From positions 126,019 through 190,018 of the IMG/VR virus record IMGVR_UViG_3300028603_000021: a DNA stretch of 64,000 bases; one strand, 5' to 3'. The stretch comes from a virus (lineage: Duplodnaviria; Caudoviricetes). The notes under the pieces are model-generated. The model was given only the letters and a program-made list of their open reading frames with translations. It was not told where the DNA came from and made no database searches. Made by a program: the position numbers and the translations under genes. Shown one piece after another: positions 1 to 38,620 of the stretch. Positions within the stretch are counted from its first letter, which is position 1. Each line of letters starts with the position of its first letter.

Positions 1-788
1 CGTGAGGTTACAAGCTCGCTTTCTCCGTATGCAGAGATGTAGCTCTGTGCATCGGCTCCCAGGAGGCCAGCAGCACGTTCAGTCTGGCTGGTACGTGCGA
101 TCTGGTAGAAGCTCTGCTGTAGGTTGATCTTGTCAACAGGTGACATGAAGACTACATCAGGACGAGCCATGCCTTGTGTCTGGTAGACTTTGTTCTCTGC
201 AACCCAGAGGGCAGCAAGAGAAAGAGGAGCACCCTTGAGGTCAAGGATATTCTGTGGCGCACCGCGCTTGACCATCGTAGGAACACCATCGAACTGAAGG
301 TTTCCGGGGGAGTCGAACTCGGTCGAGCCGAAGGCGCGGTTCCCGTGGAACATCATCCATTCGGTTTCTTCCATCACGGCTACCATCTTCTCGTTGCGTG
401 CAGTCTGCTCAGCAGTCTGGATACCTTCGCGGGTAGTAGCAACGGCAAGCTCTGTGATGGTGATGCGGTGACCGATCAGGCTCGGGCGGGTACGACGACG
501 AACTACGTCAGCGTCGATAGTACGGGGAATACCGCCGTCCTTGTACGCACCGTAGCCGATCTTGTCGTGACGTGAGGTCACGAGGCTGTACTCGTGCTCT
601 AGAGCAGTTGCCTGTACCTTAGTAAGGCGCTCGTAGAACGGAGTTTCCAAGATGTTAAGGCGGGCAAGCTCGCCTTCAAGATCCTGTCTTTCGAGGCCTT
701 GTGCAACCTGGCTGGTGCCGTCGATTGCCTTGAGGACATCTGGGTGCAGGTGCTCTAGGTATTTCATGTGTTCTGGGTAGTATGACAT
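1..788 (-). CDS. Major capsid protein, N-terminal part (runs off the window)
   Basis: Not in the ORF track. Manual translation: MSYYPEHMKYLEHLHPDVLKAIDGTSQVAQGLERQDLEGELARLNILETPFYERL...EWMMFHGN...LQFDGV. Resembles SPO1/Twort-type MCPs, lies directly downstream of the prohead protease, GGAGGA RBS at 802-807. Confidence 0.85.
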   Translation of the reverse strand, partial: MSYYPEHMKYLEHLHPDVLKAIDGTSQVAQGLERQDLEGELARLNILETPFYERLTKVQATALEHEYSLVTSRHDKIGYGAYKDGGIPRTIDADVVRRRTRPSLIGHRITITELAVATTREGIQTAEQTARNEKMVAVMEETEWMMFHGNRAFGSTEFDSPGNLQFDGVPTMVKRGAPQNILDLKGAPLSLAALWVAENKVYQTQGMARPDVVFMSPVDKINLQQSFYQIARTSQTERAAGLLGADAQSYISAYGESELVTS

Positions 789-820: not shown

Positions 821-2464
821 TCAAAGGTTGTTGTTCTCGTACTTGTTAACGTACTGATAGAACTTTGGTTGACTGATGCCTAGTAAATTCTCTGCCTTGC
901 TGAGAACTCGTCCCCTCTTCTGTGAATGTGCTTGCGAGTATCCCTTGATTGCTACATACTCTGAGATAAACGACTTAAGTGTATCCAACTGTTCGGGGTT
1001 AAGTTCACCTTCTTTAGAGTTTACCACACTTTTTTGAACAATTTCTGAAGTAGTCTCTGTACTACTGTCAACAGCTACTCCAGGCTTGACAACACGTGGT
1101 TCTGGACTCTTATTAACAACTGACTTAACTACCGTAGTTTCGTTGGTCAGTTTGTTTATGATCTTAGCTACAACACGGTCTTCCCAGCCTTCTAGGATTC
1201 CCTTTATAGCCGCGCCAAACTTTTCAGTTGACTCGTCAGAAAGCTCAACGACTGAAGACTTGATAACAGGAGGAGTTTCAGAAACCTGAGATTCACCTGG
1301 TACTTCGTCAGTAAGTTCGTCTTCTGTGCCGAACACTTCTTGTCCACCACCCCCGTCAACGATAGTCTGTAGGGCGTCTAGGATGCTGTCAAGCTTGTCT
1401 AGGATCATAGACTGGGCTTCGTCTTCCTGTTGCTCTCCGCCAGAGTCGTCTCCAACCAGTGAGTCGAGAAGGTTATCGACTGCTTCGTCGCCTTCGTCGC
1501 CCATGGCGTCTTCCATGGGGTCGCCAAGACCTTCTACGTCTGAGTCCATGTCAGCAGCATCACCGGCAAGGTCGCCAGCGTCTGCGCCTAGCTCCGCTTC
1601 GTCTGACTGAAGCTCGCTTTCATCGGCTTGAAGCTCACCCTCATCCGCCCCAACGAGGGTGTCCTCGTCAAGCTCTGGGGTTGCTTTCAGCACTTTCTTT
1701 TTGTCTGCCATAAGATATTCTATATCCTCCTTGATGTTTATGTAGCTCTCGAACACGTGAACCTTTCCGGAATCTCCATGTACGGTTGACTTGACTACTA
1801 GCTGGTTTTTGTTGCTGTCGAACAGAACACTGTCTGGTACTATCGTGTGATACGCTGTTTCTTGGTCGTCTGCGCTCGTGTCGTTAAGCATGCTCTTCAT
1901 AGCGTATGCCCACGTGCGAGTCTTGGGGTTTACTGGTTCGGGGGTTACTGATACTTCGTAGAGAAGAAGCTCTGGAAGATAGGTTATGTACTTGCCACGT
2001 CCCATATCGTACTCTCTGCGTGGGGTACCTAAGTACTTAGCCCCTATAGAAAGACCCATGGTATCGGAAAAGTTCTGCTCCTTGTTCTGCATGAAGGAGT
2101 TCCATATCATGGGAGACAGCGGGTGAGATTTGTTGAGAGCTGCCTTGATGTACAGACCTTCATCTCTTATCTCTGCATCTAGCGGTCTTCCTATGGGAAG
2201 CTTGAGAGAAAGTATCTGTTCTTGAGTAAAGCCGTGGTCTTTCAGCCAGTCGGCGTTCTTCTGGGCGTACTCGTGGTTGAAGAAAATCTTGCCGTTAGTC
2301 TTGAAGAACTCGATAGAGTTGATAAAGCTATCTGGGTAGACTACCTCACCGTACAAGTCTTCGTCTGCTGTAGAAGCGATACCTTCGAAGATCCAGTCGC
2401 CATCTTCCCCGGCGACAGACTTTACTGCATCTAAGTGTACAAATAAGTTAAAGTTCTTATGCAT
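821..2464 (-). CDS. Prohead protease (HK97-type) with acidic scaffold-like C-terminus
   Basis: FEGIAST..DLYGEVV, IFFNH, GLSIG, LYEVSVTPEPVNP motifs; long D/E-rich tail; upstream of the MCP. Confidence 0.85.
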   Translation of the reverse strand: MHKNFNLFVHLDAVKSVAGEDGDWIFEGIASTADEDLYGEVVYPDSFINSIEFFKTNGKIFFNHEYAQKNADWLKDHGFTQEQILSLKLPIGRPLDAEIRDEGLYIKAALNKSHPLSPMIWNSFMQNKEQNFSDTMGLSIGAKYLGTPRREYDMGRGKYITYLPELLLYEVSVTPEPVNPKTRTWAYAMKSMLNDTSADDQETAYHTIVPDSVLFDSNKNQLVVKSTVHGDSGKVHVFESYINIKEDIEYLMADKKKVLKATPELDEDTLVGADEGELQADESELQSDEAELGADAGDLAGDAADMDSDVEGLGDPMEDAMGDEGDEAVDNLLDSLVGDDSGGEQQEDEAQSMILDKLDSILDALQTIVDGGGGQEVFGTEDELTDEVPGESQVSETPPVIKSSVVELSDESTEKFGAAIKGILEGWEDRVVAKIINKLTNETTVVKSVVNKSPEPRVVKPGVAVDSSTETTSEIVQKSVVNSKEGELNPEQLDTLKSFISEYVAIKGYSQAHSQKRGRVLSKAENLLGISQPKFYQYVNKYENNNL

Positions 2465-14653: not shown

Positions 14654-15511
14654 TTACCTACGTAGCTTGTTTCCGAAAGCTCCAACTGGGTCACTCTTGA
14701 TCTTCTCGCGCACGATGTGCGTGTAACGCAGACCACGGTCTTTCTTCTCGTGGAATGTCATGGCATCTACATAGTATCTGCTTGGGTCGGGATTATCCCA
14801 GTTACGAGCCTCTCCGAGAGACTTGAAAACCTCGGGAAGATCTTCGTCGTCCTCTTCTTCGTCGTCTGTCTCTTCCTCGTCCTCTGTGGCTGCTTTCTTG
14901 GTCACAGTAGGGGATGATTCATCCCCCGCGACAACCTCAACCTTCTTGTCTTCAAGGTCTGCTTCCGGGGCGGATTCGTTCTGTTCTGCTGCCTCAGCCT
15001 CTTCGTCAGAGATAGCGACAGGGGTGCGCGGCTCTTCACCATGGGTGTTGTTCTCAGGCACGGATGGGATTCCAAGGGACTTCAGGATTCCGTTGAAAGA
15101 TGACAAGAAGCTGTCTAGCTCAGGTGGTGCTTTGACCTTAGAAGTAGACTTGAAGGTTTCAAGACCACGCTCAAAGGCTTCCTTCATGAAGTCGTTGACA
15201 CAGCTATGCCACTTATCGGTCAAGCAAAGCCCGTAGTTGTCAACCTCCACATACCCAGCCTTGATAAACTCAGAAACCAAGTCTCCAAACTCACCAGAAG
15301 AGATAGCCTCTATCACTGGAGTCAGGTCTTCTTGGATGACCACGTGGTTAGAAAAGCCCGTTGGGTCAACTGTATAGGCAACATCGGGGAATGTCTTGAG
15401 CACGTCAGTACCCATAACCTCTGCATCCGGGAACTGGTGCTTCATCGTTTTAAGCCAGTCGTTCGCTCCAGTCTTGGTGCGCAGGCTTTTAAGTACTGTT
15501 ACTCTTACCAT
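14654..15511 (-). CDS. Acidic putative head/scaffold-associated protein
   Basis: D/E-rich with repeated VLKS/ILKS/VFKS motifs; GGAG RBS. Confidence 0.5.
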   Translation of the reverse strand: MVRVTVLKSLRTKTGANDWLKTMKHQFPDAEVMGTDVLKTFPDVAYTVDPTGFSNHVVIQEDLTPVIEAISSGEFGDLVSEFIKAGYVEVDNYGLCLTDKWHSCVNDFMKEAFERGLETFKSTSKVKAPPELDSFLSSFNGILKSLGIPSVPENNTHGEEPRTPVAISDEEAEAAEQNESAPEADLEDKKVEVVAGDESSPTVTKKAATEDEEETDDEEEDDEDLPEVFKSLGEARNWDNPDPSRYYVDAMTFHEKKDRGLRYTHIVREKIKSDPVGAFGNKLRR

Positions 15512-15531
15512 TTTTTCTCTCCTTAGTTAGT

Positions 15532-16098
15532 TTATGATGGTGAGGTGAGTGGCCACAGTGTGTTATGGTCTATGAGAAAACCATCTATCAGAAACGTCCT
15601 AGCTTTAAGCGTTACAGTTGTGTTGCTTCCTGGTACCCCAGACAGTGTTACTGCAATCACATCTCCCGTTGTTTCGTTGTGAACTATCTCGACTGACACA
15701 ACCTCTACAGCGGCATCCCCTTGTGGGATATCCAAGGTCACCACTCTCTCCGGGAACTTTACCTTACCGTTGTCGTGGTTTACCTTATACCACGTTAACG
15801 GAAGGTTGGGGTCTTGCTGGGCATCTCCTGGAACGAAGAACGTGACTACTGTAGCCACATCGTTAGCGGTGCTGATCATATCCTCATACGGTACTTCCCA
15901 CTCAAGTACCTTAGCCCCAGACCCCGTTCTGAAGTAGTACTGCCCCGTTCTTCCATCCATTACGATAGCGTGGTCATAGCCCTCTGGCATAGTAGCCCAC
16001 GTTAACGGCACGTTAAAAACACCGGTGTCTTCGTTATAGAACAAAACTTGTTCGGTGGCAGAGTCAAAACCAGTAGTCTTGGGTTCTATCAGAAACAT
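15532..16098 (-). CDS. Hypothetical virion protein
   Basis: Beta-rich 188 aa ORF in the structural operon. Confidence 0.45.
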   Translation of the reverse strand: MFLIEPKTTGFDSATEQVLFYNEDTGVFNVPLTWATMPEGYDHAIVMDGRTGQYYFRTGSGAKVLEWEVPYEDMISTANDVATVVTFFVPGDAQQDPNLPLTWYKVNHDNGKVKFPERVVTLDIPQGDAAVEVVSVEIVHNETTGDVIAVTLSGVPGSNTTVTLKARTFLIDGFLIDHNTLWPLTSPS

Positions 16099-16100
16099 AC

Positions 16101-16820
16101 TTACTTCTCTCCCTGTAGGCGGTTATACGAGTTTCTGCCTACGGCGTATTCTCCGCCCCACTCGTAGCCGGTTTTAGGGCTCGCATGAGTAGTGGCGTAT
16201 TCTGTCTTAGAAGTATACCCAGCAGAGAACAGCCCTTGTGGGTCTGAGGCGATAGCGACCTCCCCGTTGATGTCCTGGGTTTTTTTAGAGTACCCGTTGC
16301 TCACAGCGCGAGCATGAAGCTCTCCATCGTAGAATTCATTAGGATGTAGGTATGCTACCTTCTCGCCGTCTTCTACAAAGGTCTGTACCGGTTTAGTCTT
16401 ACCGTCGCGGCTACCCCAGGAGTTTTTCTCCGCCCAGGCATCACCTACGACAGACCTAGCAAGGAAATCAGTATTATCGTCTGATTCCCCCATGGGGAAG
16501 GTAGATATCTCTTCCCCTACGTTGACATACTTCCAGAACTTTATGGCCTCTTGGAGTTTATACGCATTTTCTACAGAATATGCAGGCGCATTACCCGTAC
16601 CGTAGTACTCGTTCCATGCATCCTTGTAAGTCCCGTTAGTATAATTTGCGAGCAGGTCATAAGCTTCTTTGCTGTTGACATCGAATTCCGCAACAGGGGT
16701 GTACTGGTCACGGTAGGCATTCGTCGATGTGTCCTGGGTTATCTCAGTATCCGGCCTAGGGCTGGGTACGTCTTCGCCAGAATACCCGCTAGGGAATGGA
16801 TATTTCAGTGGATCTGCCAT
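16101..16820 (-). CDS. Hypothetical virion protein
   Basis: AGGAG RBS with TATAAT upstream; 239 aa. Confidence 0.5.
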   Translation of the reverse strand: MADPLKYPFPSGYSGEDVPSPRPDTEITQDTSTNAYRDQYTPVAEFDVNSKEAYDLLANYTNGTYKDAWNEYYGTGNAPAYSVENAYKLQEAIKFWKYVNVGEEISTFPMGESDDNTDFLARSVVGDAWAEKNSWGSRDGKTKPVQTFVEDGEKVAYLHPNEFYDGELHARAVSNGYSKKTQDINGEVAIASDPQGLFSAGYTSKTEYATTHASPKTGYEWGGEYAVGRNSYNRLQGEK

Positions 16821-28569: not shown

Positions 28570-28590
28570 AGCGCCGTAAATGGCGCTTTT
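28570..28590 (+). terminator. Intrinsic terminator after polA
   Basis: AGCGCCG-TAAA-TGGCGCT followed by a T run. Confidence 0.6.
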
Positions 28591-28652
28591 ACTGTTCTTA
28601 CTGGACAAACCTTAGTCTATGTGCTAAACTGTTGGGAATCAATAGGAGAAAA

Positions 28653-30878
28653 ATGGCCAGAACACCCTCTATAAAGATAACTGCTAAACCTAAGACACCT
28701 GGGGTAAGCTTAGCAGGTATAAACGCTGGAGAAAGCGCCCGTGCTAACAACGAGGGCGTTTTTATCTCCACCGAGTTCTACCGTAACGACATAGTAGGTA
28801 AGCCTTATCCTGGGTTCATAAACTACCAAACCCAGAGATACTTAGCATACAACAGTACCGTAGTAAGGTCGATAATCAGCTTGCGTACTCAGCAAGTAGC
28901 TATGTTGCCATATAACATAGTTCCTAGCAACGACCAAGAACCCACAAGAAAAGTCAGCGTGTTCGACTACAACATGTACGAGCTTCTATACCACCCAGTG
29001 TTCGACCAGCCTGAGAAAGACTTCCTGAAGAAGATGTACCTCAGGATAGACCCAGATGCCTACAAGATAAACAAGCAGTCTCTGTACGAAGAGTCCAAAG
29101 ACCAGTTCAGTGCCGCAGAGATAGCTACTATAGATCACTTGCAAGAGAAACACGATTCTTTTTACAGAGATAGAGACGAAAGCATAGCCAAGATAAGGTC
29201 TATCCTCAACAACCCTGACCCGTGGTTCACAGGAACACAGTCGTGGAGCCAGATGATACAGGCTATCTTGTTCGACCTCATCGCCCTCGACAGGGGAGCA
29301 CTTCTCAAGCTCAGAGACGAGGAAGGTGGGATTCGAGGCCTCATGCCGATGGATGGGGCCTCGATCCGGCCACTTATCAATGAATTTGGTTTCTACGACG
29401 ACGATAAAGCTTTCGTTCAGGTCTCCGAGACAAGCGGAACGCCTAACGTCTACCTTAACCGTAGAGATGTCATCATAATGAGTATGCACCCAGTAACTGA
29501 TATGCGTTACTTCGGCTATGGCGTGTCTCCGATGGAAACCTTGTTTACAGCCGCGCTTACCGATATCTACATAGACAAAGGACAACTAGACTTCTACCGC
29601 AAAGGTGGGTCTATACCAGAGGGTGTACTTAACATCGAGCCACCGACCTCGCGTGACGGTATGGTGTCTCACATGAACCAGCAAACTCTAGAGTACATGC
29701 AGCGTAGCTTGCAGGCTATGATGGCTGGTGACTACACCCAGGTTCCGATCTTTTCTGGGGGGAAAGTCAGCTTCATCGACTTCAAAGGTAAAAGAAGGGA
29801 CGGGCAGTACAAGGAGCTTGCTGAGTACGTAGCTAGGAAAACATGTGCCGTTTTACAAGTCTCCCCGCAAGACGTTGGCATAACATCTGATGTAAACAGG
29901 TCTAGTGCCACCGTGCAGCAAGACCTCACTAAGAGCAAGGGACTTCTGCCGCTGATGAACACAGTAGCAGAGTATATCACTCGTGGAGTTGTAGACGAGC
30001 TACGCCCGGAAAGAGACCTCAAGCTTGCTTTCATCGACGACGACACAGAGAAGAACAAGAACGAGTGGACGATGAGCCAACAGCAGCTCGTCAGCGGAGT
30101 CATAACCGTGAACGAGTACCGCGTAGCACACGGTAAATCCCCAGTTCCCTGGGGTAACAGCCCCTTGCAGGGCTTGAGAAACTGGCGCTCGCCGGAAGAA
30201 GAACAAGAGCAACAAGGCGGTGGCTTGGGCGGTCTTGGTGGTGCACCCGGGGGGTTGCCTCCCATGCCAGCTAGCGTAGCCAACCCTGGCGGCCCTGTGG
30301 GTGGAGCAAACCCAGCCGCAGGACGCCCACCTGCTGGGGCACTGAAATCGTCAAGGTTCTTCTCACTCAACGCGAGAAGCGAAGACGAAGCAGAAGAGTT
30401 CATGGTAAAAGGTTTCTCGGAGATGTACGACGAGAACTCTAACTTCCACGAGATAGTTTCTTTGCATGATATCCATAACTACCCAGGAGGAGAGTGGATG
30501 AGGACGCCTGTGGCATCCTACGAGCACTTCGTAGACACCCACCCGGCACTTGGGATAAAGGTGCAGATACCAGAAGATACAGATACAAGGGATGTTCTGC
30601 TCCTCTCGATGTACACCGGAGACGAAATCATCGTAGAAAACGGAAATGTACCGCTTATAAAGGCTATGGCGACGGCTGCGTACAACAACCTCAACGACTC
30701 TACCCGGAACAAGGTAGACGAGATCACCTTCAACAACGGTGAGGAAGCCTTTGAGAAGTACATCTACAACCGACTAGATGCCCCTCTGCAAGACGCTCTG
30801 TACAAAGACTACTACAGGTTTAAAAGTTTTGCCGTGAGTGACGCGCAGCTAGAGGAAGTAGAGCAATGTATAAGCTGA
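28653..30878 (+). CDS. Portal protein with C-terminal extension
   Basis: LMPMDGASIRP, YFGYGVSPME, FYRKGGSIPEGVL, CAVLQVSPQDVG, ITVNEYR; G/P-rich linker then an extra domain; AGGAGA RBS before the ATG at 28653. Confidence 0.85.
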   Translation: MARTPSIKITAKPKTPGVSLAGINAGESARANNEGVFISTEFYRNDIVGKPYPGFINYQTQRYLAYNSTVVRSIISLRTQQVAMLPYNIVPSNDQEPTRKVSVFDYNMYELLYHPVFDQPEKDFLKKMYLRIDPDAYKINKQSLYEESKDQFSAAEIATIDHLQEKHDSFYRDRDESIAKIRSILNNPDPWFTGTQSWSQMIQAILFDLIALDRGALLKLRDEEGGIRGLMPMDGASIRPLINEFGFYDDDKAFVQVSETSGTPNVYLNRRDVIIMSMHPVTDMRYFGYGVSPMETLFTAALTDIYIDKGQLDFYRKGGSIPEGVLNIEPPTSRDGMVSHMNQQTLEYMQRSLQAMMAGDYTQVPIFSGGKVSFIDFKGKRRDGQYKELAEYVARKTCAVLQVSPQDVGITSDVNRSSATVQQDLTKSKGLLPLMNTVAEYITRGVVDELRPERDLKLAFIDDDTEKNKNEWTMSQQQLVSGVITVNEYRVAHGKSPVPWGNSPLQGLRNWRSPEEEQEQQGGGLGGLGGAPGGLPPMPASVANPGGPVGGANPAAGRPPAGALKSSRFFSLNARSEDEAEEFMVKGFSEMYDENSNFHEIVSLHDIHNYPGGEWMRTPVASYEHFVDTHPALGIKVQIPEDTDTRDVLLLSMYTGDEIIVENGNVPLIKAMATAAYNNLNDSTRNKVDEITFNNGEEAFEKYIYNRLDAPLQDALYKDYYRFKSFAVSDAQLEEVEQCIS

Positions 30879-33800
30879 CAACCTACAAGAGTCTGGTTGT
30901 CCCAGAGGGCTTCACAACAGGGCAGTTAGACTTCTACAAGGCGTTCTCATACCTGACTTCTCTAGGCATGAACAACGAAGCTATGGCTATGTTGTTTGCA
31001 CTCAAGGCCGTAGTAGTCCCTGAGGGTAGTGCTGTGATCTATACACCCGAGGGTAAAAACCCCAGCAAGATACCAGCGGGGAGTGGTGTGCCTATCTACC
31101 TAGGTAGGGACAACACCACGTGGGAAGGGTTTGCTCAGTACGTAGCTGAAAACCCGGAGAACACTACCTGGCAGATTGTGAACGAAGAAGACGCAGAGGA
31201 CATAGAGTTCGACCAAGAATACTATGTAGCGCTCATGAGTCGGTTCAGAGAGTCTATGATCCAGTCGCTTGATGCCGGGGATTACTACAACACCGTTACT
31301 CTGCTAGAATACCTTAACCGGCTAGCTGCACAACCAGAAAAATATCTCGAAGAGGCAAGAAAAGAAACCATAGTACAGGCAGGAGACAGCAAAGAGACCA
31401 GGGAAAAGAAGAAAGAGATGCGTGACGCAGCAGAGGAACGCTACAACAAAACTCGTCGTGTACAGGTAAGCGCCACTAGACTTGCAGAGCAGACGCACGC
31501 GGAGCTAGTCTATAGACATGTACTACAGAGTAAAAACATAACAGAGCTAGAGCGTCAGGTAGAGGAAGCATTTACCCCTAGGATGGAATACCTGGCCGAG
31601 AGGCTTAAGGATGTTGACGGGACATGGAAGCTAGAGTACAGGCAAGCGGATACCACGTATTTCACTGCTACTAGGAACAACAACGCTATCGAAGCAAAGC
31701 GGGGGTATGTTCCAGTGTTGGTGAGGTACGAGGGAGAGCGAGACCTGTCAGACTTGATGGCTGTGTTGGCGCTGAGCAACTACAACGGGTTTACCACCGA
31801 AGAGCTTACCCCCGGCAGCGACTCGTCTTTGTTAGACAAAAACGGTGTTATGCACCTAGAAGATGTCGGTGTAGCAGCAGAAACCTTGGTAGGTAAAGCG
31901 CCCATGGAAGTGTTGGACAAAGCAGTCGGACTGACATCAAGGCTGGCTACCCTTATAACACTCAGGGAGCTAGCCGGGCTAGAAAGACGAGAAAAGATAG
32001 CCAGCAGGCACGCGCTAGATGCCTTGGTTACAGACCCACGTAACCTTGAAAACACATATGTCAAGAAAGGTGACATAGACTCTCAAGAAGCTTTCTTCAA
32101 CGCCATGGTGTTCACGGCTAGGATAGACCAGACCTTCGAGCAAGGAGTTGCTGTAAGTCAAGGCGTAAGTGCAGTAGACGAGAACTGGTCAGAACCAGTG
32201 CGAGAGGGAGCACACCTTCTGGTAGCTCGTAGCAGAGAGAAAGCATCAGAGTTCTTGTTTGGTAAAGACGGATGGGAACCTCTTGAAGACGCGCTTGGTA
32301 TCAAGCTCAACGAAACACACAGAACGGGGTTATCCTCCGCGATCGAGAACATGAGTGCTGAGGAAATCAACAAGCTTATGAGTAAGAACAACGACGCCCT
32401 AGCTAAGGAAGTTATGTCAGCTATGGGGATAACACGCGGGAGAGTTTCTTCGTCGCAGGCCGAGCAGATATCTGACTCTGTAAGGAGCCTACAGAAGAGG
32501 ATTCTAGCAAGGAAAGAGCTAGAGTATGCGTCATGGTCTGCAAGGTTAGGTGGTATGTACACTACTGACGGGCATTATTTCAGACGGGGGGTGTCTTGGG
32601 TAGTGAACCACGCACTAGCTGGGGAATCGGTTTCGTTCGATGAGTACTCTCAGTCGTTCGTTGGAGATGAAAGCGGTAGGATAGTACCACTCGCATACCT
32701 AGACCTCATCGGTGGTCAAGCGATAGGGTTTAACACCGACACGAACGACATAGAACTTTCTCCTACACAAGAAGAGTATTTCAAGAGTCGATACAACATG
32801 ACCGATATAAGCGGAGATAACCTGCTTGACCTGCTCTACGCGGCGTCTAAGGACGGAGGATACGCCCCTTCAGCAGTGTACTCGCAGAATATTATCAGCA
32901 GTAACGCAGATATAAAAAATCAGCTAGCGGAGAACAACGGCGGGAAAGAGTTCTCTCCTGATATGGTGGAGATAGATACAAAAGAAAACCCACGGCTCCA
33001 GTCTACAGTGCAAGACTTTGCAGGCCAGATCTTCGGTAGGATAGTAGATAACGACAACGACTACGACAACTCTACTGTCGAGCTAACAGATGCTCTTCTA
33101 GAGGCGGAAACACGGGCAGAGGTTGCACGTCTCATACCTCAGGTAGCAGAAAGCATAGCAAACAACGTAGTCACTACCTATAAGGAAACCTTTGGTGCTG
33201 GAGTTGACTCTCAGTGGGTTAAAGACCTTGTAACAAAAGATGTCAACGACAAGCTCACATCGTCACTGGGCAACAAAAAAGAGGTAGCAACTGGTAAAAG
33301 TATCCTATCCGGATCATACGGTGTGTACTTTGAAGGCGTTCAGTCGATAGCTGCCATGGTAGGGCTCGTTGGTAGGTCTGGGGCATCGGGTGCCACTGAG
33401 ACCAAGCTTGGCTTCGAGTGGGAAGACCCCACCGGGGTAAGACACATATACTCTCGCAACCCGAAAAGCGGGGCGATAGATGCGATCTACACAACACTAG
33501 GAAAAGACGGAACACTCACTGTGGAACCGATAGAGTTTAAGCTCTCTGACACTCACGACGCGATAGCGCACCTTGGAACCACAACTGATTTCTACGAACC
33601 TAAACTGCAAGAGCTTGTCAGAGATACACGTGCTAAAAAACTAGTAGTGAGCAGCACTAACAACTTCTCGCAGATAGTCAGCACAAGCAGAAAGGGTGAC
33701 CAGAAGAAAAAGCCAGCTGAGTTCAGAAAAAGGCTGAAGGGAATCGTAACCAGCGTCTTGTCGTTTAAGGTGCCCTTCTTCCAGTACAACAGAACAAAAC

Positions 33801-33967
33801 CAGTCATAACTAACGAAGAGAAAGACCCAACACCAATCGGCCCAGCAGATAAGTCACGCGGAGCTAGTAACGTGTTCGCTAGCAGCCCGAACCTGATGGA
33901 CACAAGCCGTGGCGGTGTTCGCAGACGCCAGGATGTACATCCGCTACCAAAGAAGAAGGGAAAATAG
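30866..33967 (+). CDS. Large putative head-cargo protein with C-terminal PD-(D/E)xK-like motif
   Basis: 1033 aa directly after the portal; GAIDAIY...IEFKL near the C-terminus. Confidence 0.5.
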   Translation: MYKLTTYKSLVVPEGFTTGQLDFYKAFSYLTSLGMNNEAMAMLFALKAVVVPEGSAVIYTPEGKNPSKIPAGSGVPIYLGRDNTTWEGFAQYVAENPENTTWQIVNEEDAEDIEFDQEYYVALMSRFRESMIQSLDAGDYYNTVTLLEYLNRLAAQPEKYLEEARKETIVQAGDSKETREKKKEMRDAAEERYNKTRRVQVSATRLAEQTHAELVYRHVLQSKNITELERQVEEAFTPRMEYLAERLKDVDGTWKLEYRQADTTYFTATRNNNAIEAKRGYVPVLVRYEGERDLSDLMAVLALSNYNGFTTEELTPGSDSSLLDKNGVMHLEDVGVAAETLVGKAPMEVLDKAVGLTSRLATLITLRELAGLERREKIASRHALDALVTDPRNLENTYVKKGDIDSQEAFFNAMVFTARIDQTFEQGVAVSQGVSAVDENWSEPVREGAHLLVARSREKASEFLFGKDGWEPLEDALGIKLNETHRTGLSSAIENMSAEEINKLMSKNNDALAKEVMSAMGITRGRVSSSQAEQISDSVRSLQKRILARKELEYASWSARLGGMYTTDGHYFRRGVSWVVNHALAGESVSFDEYSQSFVGDESGRIVPLAYLDLIGGQAIGFNTDTNDIELSPTQEEYFKSRYNMTDISGDNLLDLLYAASKDGGYAPSAVYSQNIISSNADIKNQLAENNGGKEFSPDMVEIDTKENPRLQSTVQDFAGQIFGRIVDNDNDYDNSTVELTDALLEAETRAEVARLIPQVAESIANNVVTTYKETFGAGVDSQWVKDLVTKDVNDKLTSSLGNKKEVATGKSILSGSYGVYFEGVQSIAAMVGLVGRSGASGATETKLGFEWEDPTGVRHIYSRNPKSGAIDAIYTTLGKDGTLTVEPIEFKLSDTHDAIAHLGTTTDFYEPKLQELVRDTRAKKLVVSSTNNFSQIVSTSRKGDQKKKPAEFRKRLKGIVTSVLSFKVPFFQYNRTKPVITNEEKDPTPIGPADKSRGASNVFASSPNLMDTSRGGVRRRQDVHPLPKKKGK

Positions 33968-33970
33968 ACT

Positions 33971-34492
33971 ATGCTTATAAGCTTATACCCAAGAGTACTC
34001 CTTGCGCGTCGTGTCTCAGAGTATATAGGGGTTGACCGAGATGACCTGCTGGCATTCTTCTTCGGGTACGCAGACCATGTGCTGCGTGGGTCTCTTACGA
34101 TAAACGAAGCGCTGGAGAAGATATCTCTAGTTAACTCGTCTAGGTATCGTTTCGTCGATGCTCTGAGCGACTTTGAGCTTGACTTGTACCTGAACGAGAA
34201 CGTGAAGCACCCTGACTACGCTACGATAGACGAAAAGTCCGACTTCACAGAGGAAAGCGCAGCCTCACTCAGCACGCTAGCAAAAGAAGCCTGGGAAAGG
34301 CTCCAAGACGCTGACTACATAGAGGGGTTGTTCTGCTTTACACTGCTGATATCTATTTTCCTGAGCGGCTACAAGGAGCGTGTCATAGACACAGTAGATT
34401 TCGAATCGGTGTTACCAGCGTATGGGATGCTAGCCCGTGCTATCATAGGCAGGAAACTAGGAGATGACTATGCAAGAAAAAAGAGTACTTGA
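33971..34492 (+). CDS. Hypothetical protein
   Basis: 173 aa ORF in the operon. Confidence 0.55.
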   Translation: MLISLYPRVLLARRVSEYIGVDRDDLLAFFFGYADHVLRGSLTINEALEKISLVNSSRYRFVDALSDFELDLYLNENVKHPDYATIDEKSDFTEESAASLSTLAKEAWERLQDADYIEGLFCFTLLISIFLSGYKERVIDTVDFESVLPAYGMLARAIIGRKLGDDYARKKST

Positions 34493-34631
34493 CATAAGCA
34501 AGGCGATAGACGCTGCTAGCGGGTTTGCCCAAGGGATAGAAGCACAAGACCTGGAAGGAAAAACCGCCAAGACAAACACCCTAACCGAAGAGGAGGACGA
34601 AGATGAAGATGACGATGGACAGCCTGGATGA
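34470..34631 (+). CDS. 53-aa protein homologous to the capsid protein N-terminus, with acidic tail
   Basis: MQEKRVLDISKAIDAASGFAQGIEAQDLEGKTAKTNTLTEEEDEDEDDDGQPG; AGGAGA RBS; below the ORF-track length cutoff. Confidence 0.75.
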   Translation: MQEKRVLDISKAIDAASGFAQGIEAQDLEGKTAKTNTLTEEEDEDEDDDGQPG

Positions 34632-34764
34632 TGTCATGTGGGAGCTTCGTCTTAAGATAGAAGAGATAGATGACGAAGTAGACAAACTTTCATACGAAGA
34701 GCCGAAGAAAAGACAGTCACTTCTGAACATGTACACTGGATACGACTACCCCGATAACGACTGA
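34603..34764 (+). CDS. 53-aa acidic hypothetical protein
   Basis: GAGGAGG RBS; stop overlaps the next start (TGATG). Confidence 0.55.
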   Translation: MKMTMDSLDDVMWELRLKIEEIDDEVDKLSYEEPKKRQSLLNMYTGYDYPDND

Positions 34765-36674
34765 TGAACAAGATAGCCAACTTCACTCTCAAAGGATTCA
34801 CTGTCCCGGTGGGACATCAGCTGGTGATAACTACACACAGCGGTGAAACTATAGTGAAAGAGGCTGGACAGAACTCTGGCGGGCCGTACAAGCTATCTGA
34901 TGTCATGTCCGGTAAGATAGATGGGTGGGAGCTATCCGAAGTCGGCCAACCAGGAGAAGAGCAGACCTCTATGCGGGATTTTGTAGAGGCTCTGATAACC
35001 ACCCCATCCCAAGACTTTTCTGATATATCCTTCAAAGAAATCCTGGGGCTCGACGAAGACTTGACAGATGAGCAGAAAACAGAGCTTTCTGCCGAGCTGC
35101 TAGACGTGGTTACAAAGATTGCAGAAGGTGCTGAGGAGGAAGAAGAACTAGAGCCGATAGAGATGCTGCGTAAAACAAAGTCATACTCTAAGCGTTACAC
35201 CTCACCGGGGACTCTCGTAACGCTCAGAAACATGGCAGCTATAAACTCAGAAGAAGGGCATGCACTTCCAGGGAAAGAGTGGAAAAAGAAACTCCCTACA
35301 GTCACAGAAGTAGCATCTTTCTTCGAGCTTGCAGAGAGAACCCTCACCCACCTCCCCGATGCTAAATCCCCAAGCGAAGTGATAGGCCACACCAGCGTAT
35401 CAAAAGAGGCACTAGAGAGATACGGAATCACAGACGTTGACTCCCTTATCGACTTTTGCTTTAACAAACCTCTAGAGGGCAGAGTTATAAAGCTCACTCC
35501 TGACTCAGCAGAAGACCCTATCACAGATGAAGAAGCCGCTAGCTACTACGAAGCTATACAGAGCAAGGTGTGGTCTCCGCAGAGCGTGATGGAGGAGATG
35601 CTTGACAGAGCTAGGTCTCCGGAGAACATACAAAAGGTCAGCAGCATAGTAGGCAAAGCTATGATAGATTTTGCTAACAGCAGCGATCTAGAAGAAGCCG
35701 ATCCACCAGAGAAAGTCGTAGACGATCTGTACAGGATTGTTACTAGGATGCTGCCAGCCAAAGAACGCCGTGAGAGCCTAGAAGCGTTCAACGCATTCAT
35801 CAAAGACTCCTTCGGTGTAGAGGGTGATACCAGAACACTTCTGCAAACCATGAAAGACCCTTCACGCGGAAAGCTGTTCTTCTCGATGGTACTAAAAGGC
35901 ATAAACACAGACCCTAAATCTGCAAAACTTCTAGCTAACAAGCTGAACGAAGTAGCTCCGAGCTTGAACATCGGTAAAAGCCTTGACAAACGCGCAGAGA
36001 CATACAAGCGCTCGCTTGCATCTAGTAACCTACAGAAGTTTAAAGAAATGATGACCAAAAAAGTTCTGAGGTACACAAACAAAGATCTCATGAACCAGCT
36101 AGACGAGAACAACCCCGACATCGGGCTAACACTCAGCGAAGAACAGCAGACAGCGATAAACTTCGCACTCTCTCTGGCACATCCCAAGGTGGCTAGCCAT
36201 ATCATGAAAAAGCTTGACATACAGTTCACCCAGAGACCTAGGGCAAACTTCAGGCCGTTCGCAGATGTAGAGTCTATGGCCATAAGCGTAGCAAGCAACA
36301 CACTGCCGCGGGTATTTGCACACGAGGTAGGACATCTGGTAGAATACCATTCGTGGGAAGCCCTGAGAGCATCAGTTCTCCCCTTCCTGTATAAAAGAAC
36401 CTTTGGTGGTGGAGAACAGGTGTTTGAAGACGACGATGACGATGAACCAGAATACTACAGGGATGGTGGGGGATTTATAGACAGCTACTCAGCTAAGACA
36501 TACCCAGGAAGGAACGCAACAGAAGTGATAAGCATGGGCATGGAGATGTTATACAAGAACCCAGCGGTTTTTGCTTACCTAGACCCAGAACACTTCATCA
36601 CAACACTAGACATAAGCCAACCAGTAGCACTAAGGAAAGGAGCAAGGTATGAAGTACCAGATAAAGCTAGCTGA
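34764..36674 (+). CDS. Putative head-cargo protein with C-terminal zincin metallopeptidase domain
   Basis: FAHEVGHLVE...YSAKTY...TEVISMGME...DPEH. Confidence 0.65.
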   Translation: MNKIANFTLKGFTVPVGHQLVITTHSGETIVKEAGQNSGGPYKLSDVMSGKIDGWELSEVGQPGEEQTSMRDFVEALITTPSQDFSDISFKEILGLDEDLTDEQKTELSAELLDVVTKIAEGAEEEEELEPIEMLRKTKSYSKRYTSPGTLVTLRNMAAINSEEGHALPGKEWKKKLPTVTEVASFFELAERTLTHLPDAKSPSEVIGHTSVSKEALERYGITDVDSLIDFCFNKPLEGRVIKLTPDSAEDPITDEEAASYYEAIQSKVWSPQSVMEEMLDRARSPENIQKVSSIVGKAMIDFANSSDLEEADPPEKVVDDLYRIVTRMLPAKERRESLEAFNAFIKDSFGVEGDTRTLLQTMKDPSRGKLFFSMVLKGINTDPKSAKLLANKLNEVAPSLNIGKSLDKRAETYKRSLASSNLQKFKEMMTKKVLRYTNKDLMNQLDENNPDIGLTLSEEQQTAINFALSLAHPKVASHIMKKLDIQFTQRPRANFRPFADVESMAISVASNTLPRVFAHEVGHLVEYHSWEALRASVLPFLYKRTFGGGEQVFEDDDDDEPEYYRDGGGFIDSYSAKTYPGRNATEVISMGMEMLYKNPAVFAYLDPEHFITTLDISQPVALRKGARYEVPDKAS

Positions 36675-36895: not shown

Positions 36896-38620
36896 ATGGC
36901 GTTCAGAGTACCCTTCGGCTATGATCTAATCGTAGACGGGCTGCCATCTAAGAGAGCCGGTGAGATGTCCGGCGGCCAGTACGGTCTGAGAGAGGTCTTA
37001 GACGGTACAGTGGAAGGCTGGCAGCTTATACCTACCGGAGAGTACAGAGAGGTGCCTGCGTTTTCCCCGCCGGGTGAAGTGCTGGATATCTGTGATGCTA
37101 TATCTGCCTCGGGTGGAGACACTATCTTCGCTGGCGGAGTAGTAAGGGATAGCCTTGCTGGTGTAGAGAATAAGGACATAGACGTAGAGGTCTACGGCAT
37201 GAAGCCGGATAAGCTGGAAAGTGTCCTATCTAAGTTCGGTAGAGTTGACACTGTTGGGTCAAGCTTCGGAATCATAAAACTTACAACGGAGACAAACGAC
37301 TACGACTTCAGCTTGCCGCGCCGGGAAAACAAAGCAGGCAAAGGGCACCGTGGTTTCGTGGTAGAACCTGATGAAAACATGACCTACGAAGAGGCAGGGG
37401 CACGCAGGGATTTCACCATAAACGCTATGAGCATGACTACAGGTGGAAGGCTTATAGATTATTTCAGAGGCCTTACAGATCTTCGTGACAGGATACTCAG
37501 GCACACGTCTAACCACTTCTCGGAAGATCCTTTACGTGTTCTCAGGGGATTTCAGTTTGCTAGCAGGTTCGGTATGTCTATGGACAAGAAGACCGCCGAC
37601 TTATCTCGCTCTCTGAGGAACGAATACTCAGAACTACCGAAGGAAAGAGTCTGGACTGAGTGGGAGAAGTGGGGGTCTAAGGGGCGTTTCCCTAGTGCCG
37701 GGATACAGGTTCTCAAGGACACAGACTGGCTAGAGCTGTACCCAGAGCTTGCCCAGATGGATGGTGTGAAGCAAGACCCCGAATACCACCCTGAAGGGGA
37801 TGTCCTTGTCCATACTATGCATGTAGTGGACGAAGCTGCTAAGATAGCTGAGAGAGAAAACCTAGACAGCAGAGAAAAGCTTATCCTGATGTTTGCAGCC
37901 CTGTGCCACGACCTAGGAAAACCAGAGACTACGGTTCTGAAGAACAGCAGGTGGGCATCGCCTGGGCACGCACAAGCTGGAGAAAAGCTGACTGTCTCGT
38001 TCCTTTCTTCCATCGGTGCTCCGTCTTGGCTTATAGAGAGCGTAGCACCTCTAGTCGTAGAACACATGGCGCACGTCGGCGTAGAGATGACACCTAGGGT
38101 TGTAAACAGGATAGCAGCCAGAGTATCTCCGTCTAACATAAGGATGCTTTCATACGTGATAGAAGCAGACCACTCCGGCAGGCCGCCGCTAGAAAAAGGG
38201 CTCCCAGAAGAAGCTGAGAAGATGGTAGAGATGTCAGAGAGGCTGTCGATAGCTTCGAACAAGCCCAAGGCTCTTCTAGGAGGAAAGGACTTGTTTGACC
38301 TAGCAGATACCGGAGCACTGCCAGAAGCCTACATGCGTCCGGGTAAGCACTTCGGAGTCTTGTTAAACTACCTCTACGAAGCTCAGCTAGACGGTGAGTT
38401 CGATACGCCAGAAGAAGGGCGTAAGTTTGTTGCGTTCATGTTTGACGAAGAAAAAAAGTCTAGCATAGAAGAGGCGATAGACTACATAGAATCACTCAAC
38501 CGCAGGCGCTTACTGAGGCTGATCGACGAAGCTAACAGACAGGGGCTGTCTGAAGAGGAGCTTCTTCAGCTACCGAGAGAAGAGATAGCAAGAATGTCCC
38601 AGCTTGCCGTATCTAAGTAA
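36896..38620 (+). CDS. cca: tRNA nucleotidyltransferase (class II CCA-adding/poly(A) polymerase family) with HD domain and an extra N-terminal module
   Basis: GGVVRD, DIDVEV, RRDFTINAM, EDPLRVLR; HD domain YHPEGDVLVHT...LCHDLGKP...GHA. Confidence 0.88.
   Translation: MAFRVPFGYDLIVDGLPSKRAGEMSGGQYGLREVLDGTVEGWQLIPTGEYREVPAFSPPGEVLDICDAISASGGDTIFAGGVVRDSLAGVENKDIDVEVYGMKPDKLESVLSKFGRVDTVGSSFGIIKLTTETNDYDFSLPRRENKAGKGHRGFVVEPDENMTYEEAGARRDFTINAMSMTTGGRLIDYFRGLTDLRDRILRHTSNHFSEDPLRVLRGFQFASRFGMSMDKKTADLSRSLRNEYSELPKERVWTEWEKWGSKGRFPSAGIQVLKDTDWLELYPELAQMDGVKQDPEYHPEGDVLVHTMHVVDEAAKIAERENLDSREKLILMFAALCHDLGKPETTVLKNSRWASPGHAQAGEKLTVSFLSSIGAPSWLIESVAPLVVEHMAHVGVEMTPRVVNRIAARVSPSNIRMLSYVIEADHSGRPPLEKGLPEEAEKMVEMSERLSIASNKPKALLGGKDLFDLADTGALPEAYMRPGKHFGVLLNYLYEAQLDGEFDTPEEGRKFVAFMFDEEKKSSIEEAIDYIESLNRRRLLRLIDEANRQGLSEEELLQLPREEIARMSQLAVSK

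Follow-up and report, generated by a model that had tools for sequence, protein, structure and literature searches.

Background

How minor and internal proteins are counted into the heads of tailed phages is known for a few model phages only. In T4, internal proteins are loaded into heads by short transferable signals; the targeting signal, a leader of about 10 residues at the N-terminus, is unrelated to gp23 and is removed by the prohead protease at an L/I-x-E site. T4 also encodes two small acidic products, gp67 and gp68, directly 3' of its portal gene, and both are located in the prohead core and are trimmed by the prohead protease. Prohead proteases of the T4 and phiKZ types use sites with Glu at P1. 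Phage scaffolding proteins are elongated and helical, bind the coat protein through a C-terminal helix-turn-helix and leave the head at maturation. In P22, genetics indicates that Asp14 of the coat N-arm interacts with the scaffold helix-turn-helix. Encapsulin cargo-loading peptides, which are short, modular and C-terminal, dock to the inner face of an HK97-fold shell after a flexible linker. In the procapsid structure of phage 80alpha, the C-terminal helix of the scaffold grips the capsid protein at its N-arm helix, and CpmB of SaPI1 enters the 80alpha procapsid by copying the scaffold partner of this N-arm/scaffold pair (PMC5644958).

We analyzed the last 64 kb (hereafter the window) of a 190,018-bp viral record rated complete. 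The portal operon in the window encodes a 53-aa peptide with a motif that, on well-supported evidence, is a copy, by homology, of the helix that forms the N-terminal arm in the major capsid protein (MCP) of the same phage. In most homologs the same motif lies near the C-terminus of a 240-300-aa protein, for which the family name p265 (alignment A5) is coined here. By analogy, the nearest known principle would be the mimicry within the N-arm/scaffold pair seen in SaPI1 CpmB, with the roles reversed. As in 80alpha and P22, the capsid N-arm helix would be a dedicated protein-binding handle in the procapsid. In the 80alpha/SaPI1 system, however, the copied element is the scaffold C-terminal helix and it is encoded by a parasite island, whereas in the window phage the capsid arm has been copied by the phage itself onto a portal-operon protein.

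The other described systems are more distant. T4 gp67 and gp68 are similar to the peptide in gene position and acidity, with no sequence similarity. Unlike the T4 targeting leader, the p265 module is C-terminal or a separate gene and is a homolog of the MCP arm; p265 as a T4-type capsid targeting sequence was considered and rejected, since family members carry the module at the C-terminus and it spans 25-35 residues. The encapsulin system is alike in having a short modular C-terminal docking peptide on otherwise unrelated cargo, but its cargo peptides are unrelated to the shell protein sequence and belong to bacterial nanocompartments, not to tailed phages. The acidic tail of the peptide is reminiscent of phage scaffolding proteins, with no family match in Pfam or PHROGs. 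With the phiYS40-type capsid proteins (PF17236, SU10_MCP; phrog_752) the peptide has about 30 homologous N-arm residues in common; it differs from them in lacking any HK97 fold and in its length (53 aa vs 464 aa).

Capsid genes of the window phage

The MCP gene is located on the minus strand at the edge of the window, with its start at position 788. The window contains its 5' part (3..788), the gene continues beyond the edge, and the full-length protein in the genome has 464 aa. The protein was identified by Pfam SU10_MCP (E-value 5.9e-12) and phrog_752 (E-value 1.3e-33) and is 53% identical to the head protein of Thermus phage phiYS40/TMA. MCP residues 17-47, the N-arm segment to which the peptide corresponds, are encoded at 648..740 (minus strand). 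In the predicted model, residues 16-39 are helical with low confidence, which is to be expected when an N-arm is modelled in a monomer, and the N-arm is nearly invariant across the clade (about 90 MCPs compared). When the MCP N-terminus was compared with PDB sequences, chance matches only were obtained, and the searchable literature did not yield the position at which phiYS40-, SPO1- or 812-type MCPs are cleaved during maturation.

Directly upstream of the MCP gene, a fusion gene (821..2464, minus strand) encodes a prohead protease continued by a scaffold-like acidic region and, at the C-terminus, a basic helical domain (phrog_32465, E-value 4.8e-21; alignment with phiYS40 and relatives). According to the alignment and the sequence, the C-terminus of this protein is helical and Lys/Arg-rich; the arm-like motif is acidic. 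The protease-scaffold protein can be considered a candidate binding partner of the arm motif.

The 53-aa peptide gene and its match to the capsid arm

The peptide gene (34470..34631, plus strand) is preceded by an AGGAG ribosome-binding site at 34459..34463, 6 nt before the ATG at 34470; an alternative ATG is present at 34464. A preliminary description of this DNA had reported an ORF with its own ribosome-binding site and a gapless match to the capsid arm, and both proved to be real. Between peptide residues 8-38 (34491..34583, plus strand; core ..KAIDAASGFAQGIEAQDLEG..) and MCP residues 17-47, the recount gave 18 identities in 31 ungapped positions, which is well above chance in three kinds of search. 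A tblastn search of the peptide against its own 190-kb genome returned only the peptide itself and the MCP N-terminus (E-value 2.6e-6). When phmmer was applied to the 3,296 stop-to-stop frames of the same genome, the MCP was found with an E-value of 1.4e-5 and the runner-up had an E-value of 6. The comparison of 33 family C-modules with about 85 MCP N-termini using hhalign gave a probability of 98.6% and an E-value of 1.3e-15 over 35 columns; an MCP and a p265 protein were confirmed as coming from one genome for the window's own pair only. At the level of profiles, the peptide is thus truly homologous to the MCP N-arm, as the preliminary description had supposed.

The similarity is limited to MCP residues 14-48. 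It stops at ..DLEG, ahead of the ..RLNILETP.. segment leading the MCP arm into the fold, and the HK97 fold (E-loop, P-domain spine helix and A-domain) is absent from the peptide, which has 53 aa and no Pfam match. The motif is followed by an acidic tail (34587..34628, plus strand) with a post-motif net charge of -8. An R-to-A/T change in the ..LE(R)QDLE.. of the peptide has no counterpart in the phage's own MCP. The 53-aa product was already a called protein in the protein collection searched, and a homolog with 74% identity (P0005) was found in a syntenic relative. The tail DNA is rich in GAA, GAG and GAC, and a spike in 31-mer depth was observed over 34582-34643 (40-210 vs 3-19 nearby); it is a low-complexity artefact from unrelated metagenome 31-mers and no copy-number signal.

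The portal operon

The location of the peptide gene in the portal operon, with the MCP gene (start 788) on the opposite strand, was likewise correct in the preliminary description. The portal gene (28632..30878, plus strand; 748 aa; Pfam Phage_portal, E-value 4.8e-29) is the first of a conserved block. Two elements directly precede the portal start: a hairpin resembling a terminator (28570-28587) and, after it, a promoter-like site with a TG extension (TGGACA-17-TAAACT, 28602-28630). The stretch 28570-28630 is likely the start of the portal operon. After the portal gene, no terminator-like site was found on the plus strand until about 38.3 kb.

The next gene in the block encodes a 1033-aa protein (30866..33967, plus strand) without a family match, a neighbour that is kept between portal and p265 in all relatives. 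It is followed by a 173-aa gene (33971..34492, plus strand), which overlaps the peptide gene in a different frame. Among its final codons, the 173-aa gene contains an in-frame -1 slippery heptamer of the dnaX type, A_AAA_AAG (34477-34483); a -1 frameshift at this site was rejected because translation in the -1 frame would meet a stop codon after four codons. The 3' end of the peptide gene is overlapped by a second 53-aa gene (34603..34764, plus strand). An ORF of 39-55 aa is present at the same spot in six relatives (L004, L018, L027, L033 and L034 among them); its position is constant, and sequence similarity of the second 53-aa gene is shown only to the L004 copy (29% identical).

The p265 family

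A single locus from the IMG/VR portal-profile scan (contig L018; portal 52% identical) has one 263-aa ORF (15428..16219) replacing the 173-aa and 53-aa genes. The N-part of its product aligns with the 173-aa protein, and its C-part contains ..KIDIARAISAAGGFAQALERQDLEGK... The 173-aa protein aligns with the N-part of the fused homologs in general, and a profile built from it and its homologs retrieved further proteins of 266-272 aa with the same build (P0100-P0104). The 173-aa protein, the N-terminal all-alpha half, matches family HMM positions 2-162 (E-value 2.4e-25), the peptide matches positions 201-243 (E-value 8.3e-14), and positions 163-200 (linker and beta-hairpin) are absent from the two ORFs of the window, in which the family thus occurs in split form. 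Both window genes therefore belong to a single split gene, and it is well supported by these sequence matches that they are the two halves of one ancestral gene. The preliminary description had presented the peptide as a stand-alone N-arm. It is indeed a separate gene under selection, but it did not originate on its own: what it encodes is the C-terminal module of a conserved protein of 240-300 aa, split off from the rest. In annotation, the supposed "53-aa orphan" should be joined with the 173-aa gene next to it as a single split gene.

The family members have an all-alpha N-domain of about 165 residues with a ..LFxFxxLxxxFLGG.. helix, which in the window is carried by the 173-aa gene. Near the C-terminus they have the motif ..D(I/V)xxAITA(A/S)GGxAQxLE(R/K)QDLE(G/P).. 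followed by a charged tail; in the window, ..AITA(A/S)GGxAQxLE(R/K)QDLE(G/P).. and the tail are found on the peptide. In the AF2 model of the fused member P0100 (family alignment; mean pLDDT 83.8), residues 1-166 are predicted as the all-alpha N-domain (pLDDT >90), residues 204-213 as a beta-hairpin, residues 214-223 and 226-237 as the motif helices and residues 241-269 as a disordered tail. The N-domains have diverged to about 20% identity, and A.GG.AQ.LE..DLE is at least 90% conserved; P0127, from a distant subfamily, has ..LEREDLE.. in this stretch. The putative K|A maturation site pointed out in the preliminary description holds for the MCPs, in which the Lys is invariant, but not family-wide, since p265 members have K, R, N, L or M at this position.

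When a profile of 36 motif positions was searched against 1.84 billion representatives, 31 matches were obtained at E<=1e-3. In about 22 of them, proteins of 184-297 aa, the motif lies 20-40 residues before the C-terminus; the others are fragments or small forms that stand alone. No MCP was among the matches at this threshold, and the arm copy is therefore old and forms its own family.

The gene order portal, 900-1100-aa protein, p265 and 39-55-aa ORF was found in every context recovered (L004, L018, L022, L026, L027, L033 and L034), and the window has this order in comparison with L004, L018, L026, L033 and L034. The closest relative (Logan contigs L004-L013; portal 70.5% identical) has the same arrangement as the window, with the portal gene followed by genes for 1006, 175, 57 and 53 aa. 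The clade with p265 consists of uncultured phages of ~190 kb related to phiYS40. Phage phiYS40 itself has no p265, and the family profile matches only its MCP arm (E-value 2.2e-7). Its portal gene (L021:4573-7410; 945 aa) is followed by a gene for an 881-aa protein and then by a tail fibre gene, with neither p265 nor small ORFs, so that the block next to the portal is not the same in the cultured Thermus phages as in the window clade.

Pfam and PHROGs returned nothing for the peptide, the 173-aa half and ten members of the p265 family. The AF2 model of P0100 gave nothing above noise in Foldseek (PDB, BFVD) and in a wide VIA-align search (best Z 4.5), and sub-threshold leads only in the ESM Atlas. 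Among 50,697 GenBank phage records, searched as DNA and protein, no match was found for the 33.9-36.7 kb region, the peptide, the 636-aa neighbour and two p265 members. IMG/VR pattern scans with the peptide and with the 636-aa protein retrieved no relatives, and no RNA datasets carrying the region were listed among public runs. In the databases searched, p265 thus appears as an undescribed family without a Pfam, PHROG, PDB or cultured-phage match; it is a strongly conserved head-operon family in widespread environmental phages of ~190 kb (landfill, sludge, soil).

Gene splitting, selection and tail charge

A comparison of the window with L004 shows saturation at synonymous sites (pS about 0.8). 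The pN value of the peptide core (0.145; 72-74% identical) is lower than that of the portal (0.196; 71% identical), and the values for the 173-aa half, the 1033-aa protein and the second small ORF are 0.42, 0.51 and 0.50, respectively. The peptide is thus conserved in a relative with the same gene arrangement, and L004 also retains GGAG and ATG for its peptide at the same place. In contigs from four metagenome studies (landfill, activated sludge and soil), the region contains no indels, and the changes within the peptide across these strains are confined to Gly18 (synonymous) and, outside the core, T39I.

A second split form was found in L022. Here, linker and hairpin have stayed in a 212-aa protein, and the motif and an acidic tail follow a new N-part in a protein of 96 aa; the genes overlap by ATGA. 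In the portal tree, the window and L004 (100/100) are sister to the fused L018 (80/88), and L022 is placed outside. L022 is separated from the lineage of the window by a fused lineage, which indicates that the p265 gene was split independently, at least twice, at the same module boundary. That the linker was deleted in the lineage of the window, and that motif and tail are made there from their own ribosome-binding site and ATG as a 53-aa peptide, is well supported by the sequences compared. Because the gene was split twice at one boundary and selection acts on the split form, motif and tail together constitute an autonomous module.

The tail after ..DLE(G/P) has a net charge of -5 to -10 in all six stand-alone forms (P0002, P0005, P0105, P0106, P0109 and P0117), which belong to two split types. 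In fused forms, the tail has a net charge of -3 to +12, and one subfamily ends in poly-Lys. The D/E tail noted in the preliminary description is therefore present in the peptide but lineage-specific, as most fused members have basic, often poly-Lys tails. Tail charge tracks gene architecture (acidic in split forms, mixed or basic in fused forms), a correlation that is suggestive, as it is based on only two independent split events.

A possible role in docking to the prohead

The module is homologous to the MCP arm, is under very strong constraint, has a fixed position in the portal operon and is modular in its motif and tail. Judged from these features, it is most likely a docking helix that would exploit what the MCP arm itself binds, whether this is the C-terminus of the scaffold or an adjacent MCP. 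Docking into the head, whether at the capsid wall, at the portal vertex or as a cargo tether, is in keeping with the anatomy of the family.

We tentatively prefer, with a confidence somewhat short of even, the explanation that p265 is docked into the prohead via the scaffold partner of the MCP arm. The arm copy would let p265 be gripped by the same partner as the MCP arm, which here would be the basic helical domain at the C-terminus of the protease-scaffold protein, and p265 would be built into the prohead interior beside the portal, together with the large proteins encoded around it. The separate peptide would enter with the 173-aa half by a non-covalent association, which is assumed, or would fill arm-binding sites alone, and its acidic tail would stand where the fused forms have a basic tail. 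Scaffold-mediated docking is favoured since the N-arm is a scaffold handle in other phages and since, in the window phage, the scaffold C-terminus is basic and the motif is acidic. Against a scaffold receptor, the scaffold C-terminus is much less conserved than the motif in the sequences aligned; for a near-invariant motif a near-invariant surface would be expected, and the MCP body, the protease active site or the portal would fit better than the scaffold C-terminus. It also speaks against the docking model that the split forms have no linker and hairpin, that the flip in tail charge between the forms is left without explanation and that no cultured phage was found to carry the family.

A different use of the arm copy, possible but unlikely in our judgement, would be as an N-arm acting in trans, which inserts into the arm sockets of neighbouring MCPs and anchors p265 or the peptide to the inner capsid wall, most plausibly at vacant sockets around the portal vertex. 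This use stood first among those put forward in the preliminary description. In its favour, p265 is invariably the second gene beyond the portal gene. Its motif varies as little as the MCP arm does, and a receptor on the highly conserved body of the MCP would suit this. From the offset to the MCP chains of Staphylococcus phage 812 (463 vs 439 residues), the maturation cut may precede the motif, and the arm might then perhaps stay in the mature shell. On the other hand, few copies are expected at one vertex, yet the module is under very strong constraint, and it encodes no full replacement of the arm because the similarity stops at ..DLEG before ..RLNILETP... In its extended version, this explanation has the MCP arm encoded twice, the second time as a portable module that plugs in trans into arm sockets (most plausibly those empty around the portal), tethers the portal-proximal complex and helps to resolve the 5-fold/12-fold mismatch, with the free 53-aa acidic plug acting alone in some lineages; we regard this, too, as rather improbable. 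The motif could also be a maturation signal shared with the MCP, in which a recognition and cleavage module of the prohead protease is cut after (S/G/A)-L-E or at K|A and the charged tail is released as an internal head peptide, much like the acidic internal peptides that T4 derives from its prohead core proteins; p265 would then undergo processing as the MCP does. Such a role is doubtful. The residue before L-E is S, G, A or T in both MCPs and p265, and L-E resembles the Glu-P1 sites of T4- and phiKZ-type proteases; the tails vary freely in charge and length, as released or discarded peptides would, and small acidic products just 3' of the portal gene recall T4 gp67 and gp68. However, the Lys of K|A is variable in p265, two MCPs have L-Q instead of L-E, and the conservation of about 25 residues goes far beyond the needs of a protease site.

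The remaining explanations concern the split form. Slippage by +1 in translation or transcription, on the A-run at 34477-34482, might fuse the 173-aa frame to the peptide frame, as the overlap contains AGA AAA AAG and a +1 slip of tRNA-Lys on A6 would enter the peptide frame before ..RVLDISKAID... This rejoining of the halves is quite improbable: L004 has the same split but no comparable A-run, the ribosome-binding site and ATG of the peptide are retained in both lineages, and the second split lineage (L022) has a plain ATGA overlap. No conserved slippery site for a programmed frameshift is common to the window and L004. The stand-alone acidic forms arose twice, which suggests that the module can act alone, and the free peptide might then be a soluble competitor that ties up what the MCP arm binds and so times assembly, or a decoy that distracts a capsid-sensing host defence, as the preliminary description had also considered. 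We find this very unlikely, since the module is ancestrally, and still most often, attached to the C-terminus of a folded head-operon protein, the gene appears to be co-transcribed late with structural genes and no defence-related neighbours were found; a defence decoy in particular fits the anatomy of p265 poorly. Finally, the gene is split relative to most homologs and could be taken for a non-functional remnant of a broken gene, which is scarcely credible. A neutrally decayed fragment, named in the preliminary description as the finding that would overturn it, is excluded because synonymous sites are saturated and the peptide has fewer non-synonymous changes than the portal. In addition, the ORF is intact in strains from four studies, ribosome-binding site and ATG are kept in two lineages that are 30% apart in portal sequence, and the independent second split keeps the same module.

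If the preferred docking of p265 through the arm copy is true, a loading or docking signal derived from a duplicated MCP N-arm would be a new and simple solution to the loading of head proteins. The arm module is short, modular and autonomous (a separate gene twice) and could therefore be tested as a tag for loading foreign proteins into HK97-fold shells.

Other features of the neighbouring genes

A 636-aa zincin-like protein and a 574-aa CCA-adding/HD enzyme have a homologous N-terminal module of about 55 residues with the pattern ..F(T/R)VP.G... Residues 9-60 of the 636-aa protein are 41.5% identical to residues 5-57 of the CCA enzyme of a relative. The module also heads a 621-aa protein in L022, and a weaker version starts the 1033-aa protein; the sites in the window are 30866-30950, 34764-34960 and 36896-37060. 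From its sequence, the shared module is a candidate tag for head loading or cleavage, and its presence on large proteins fits the picture of a cargo-rich portal operon.

Elements of the IS200/IS605 type (Y1 transposase and TnpB/OrfB) were observed in related phages at L026:12774-14319 and L005:1-46. They are located in or beside structural operons, near the portal-p265 block.
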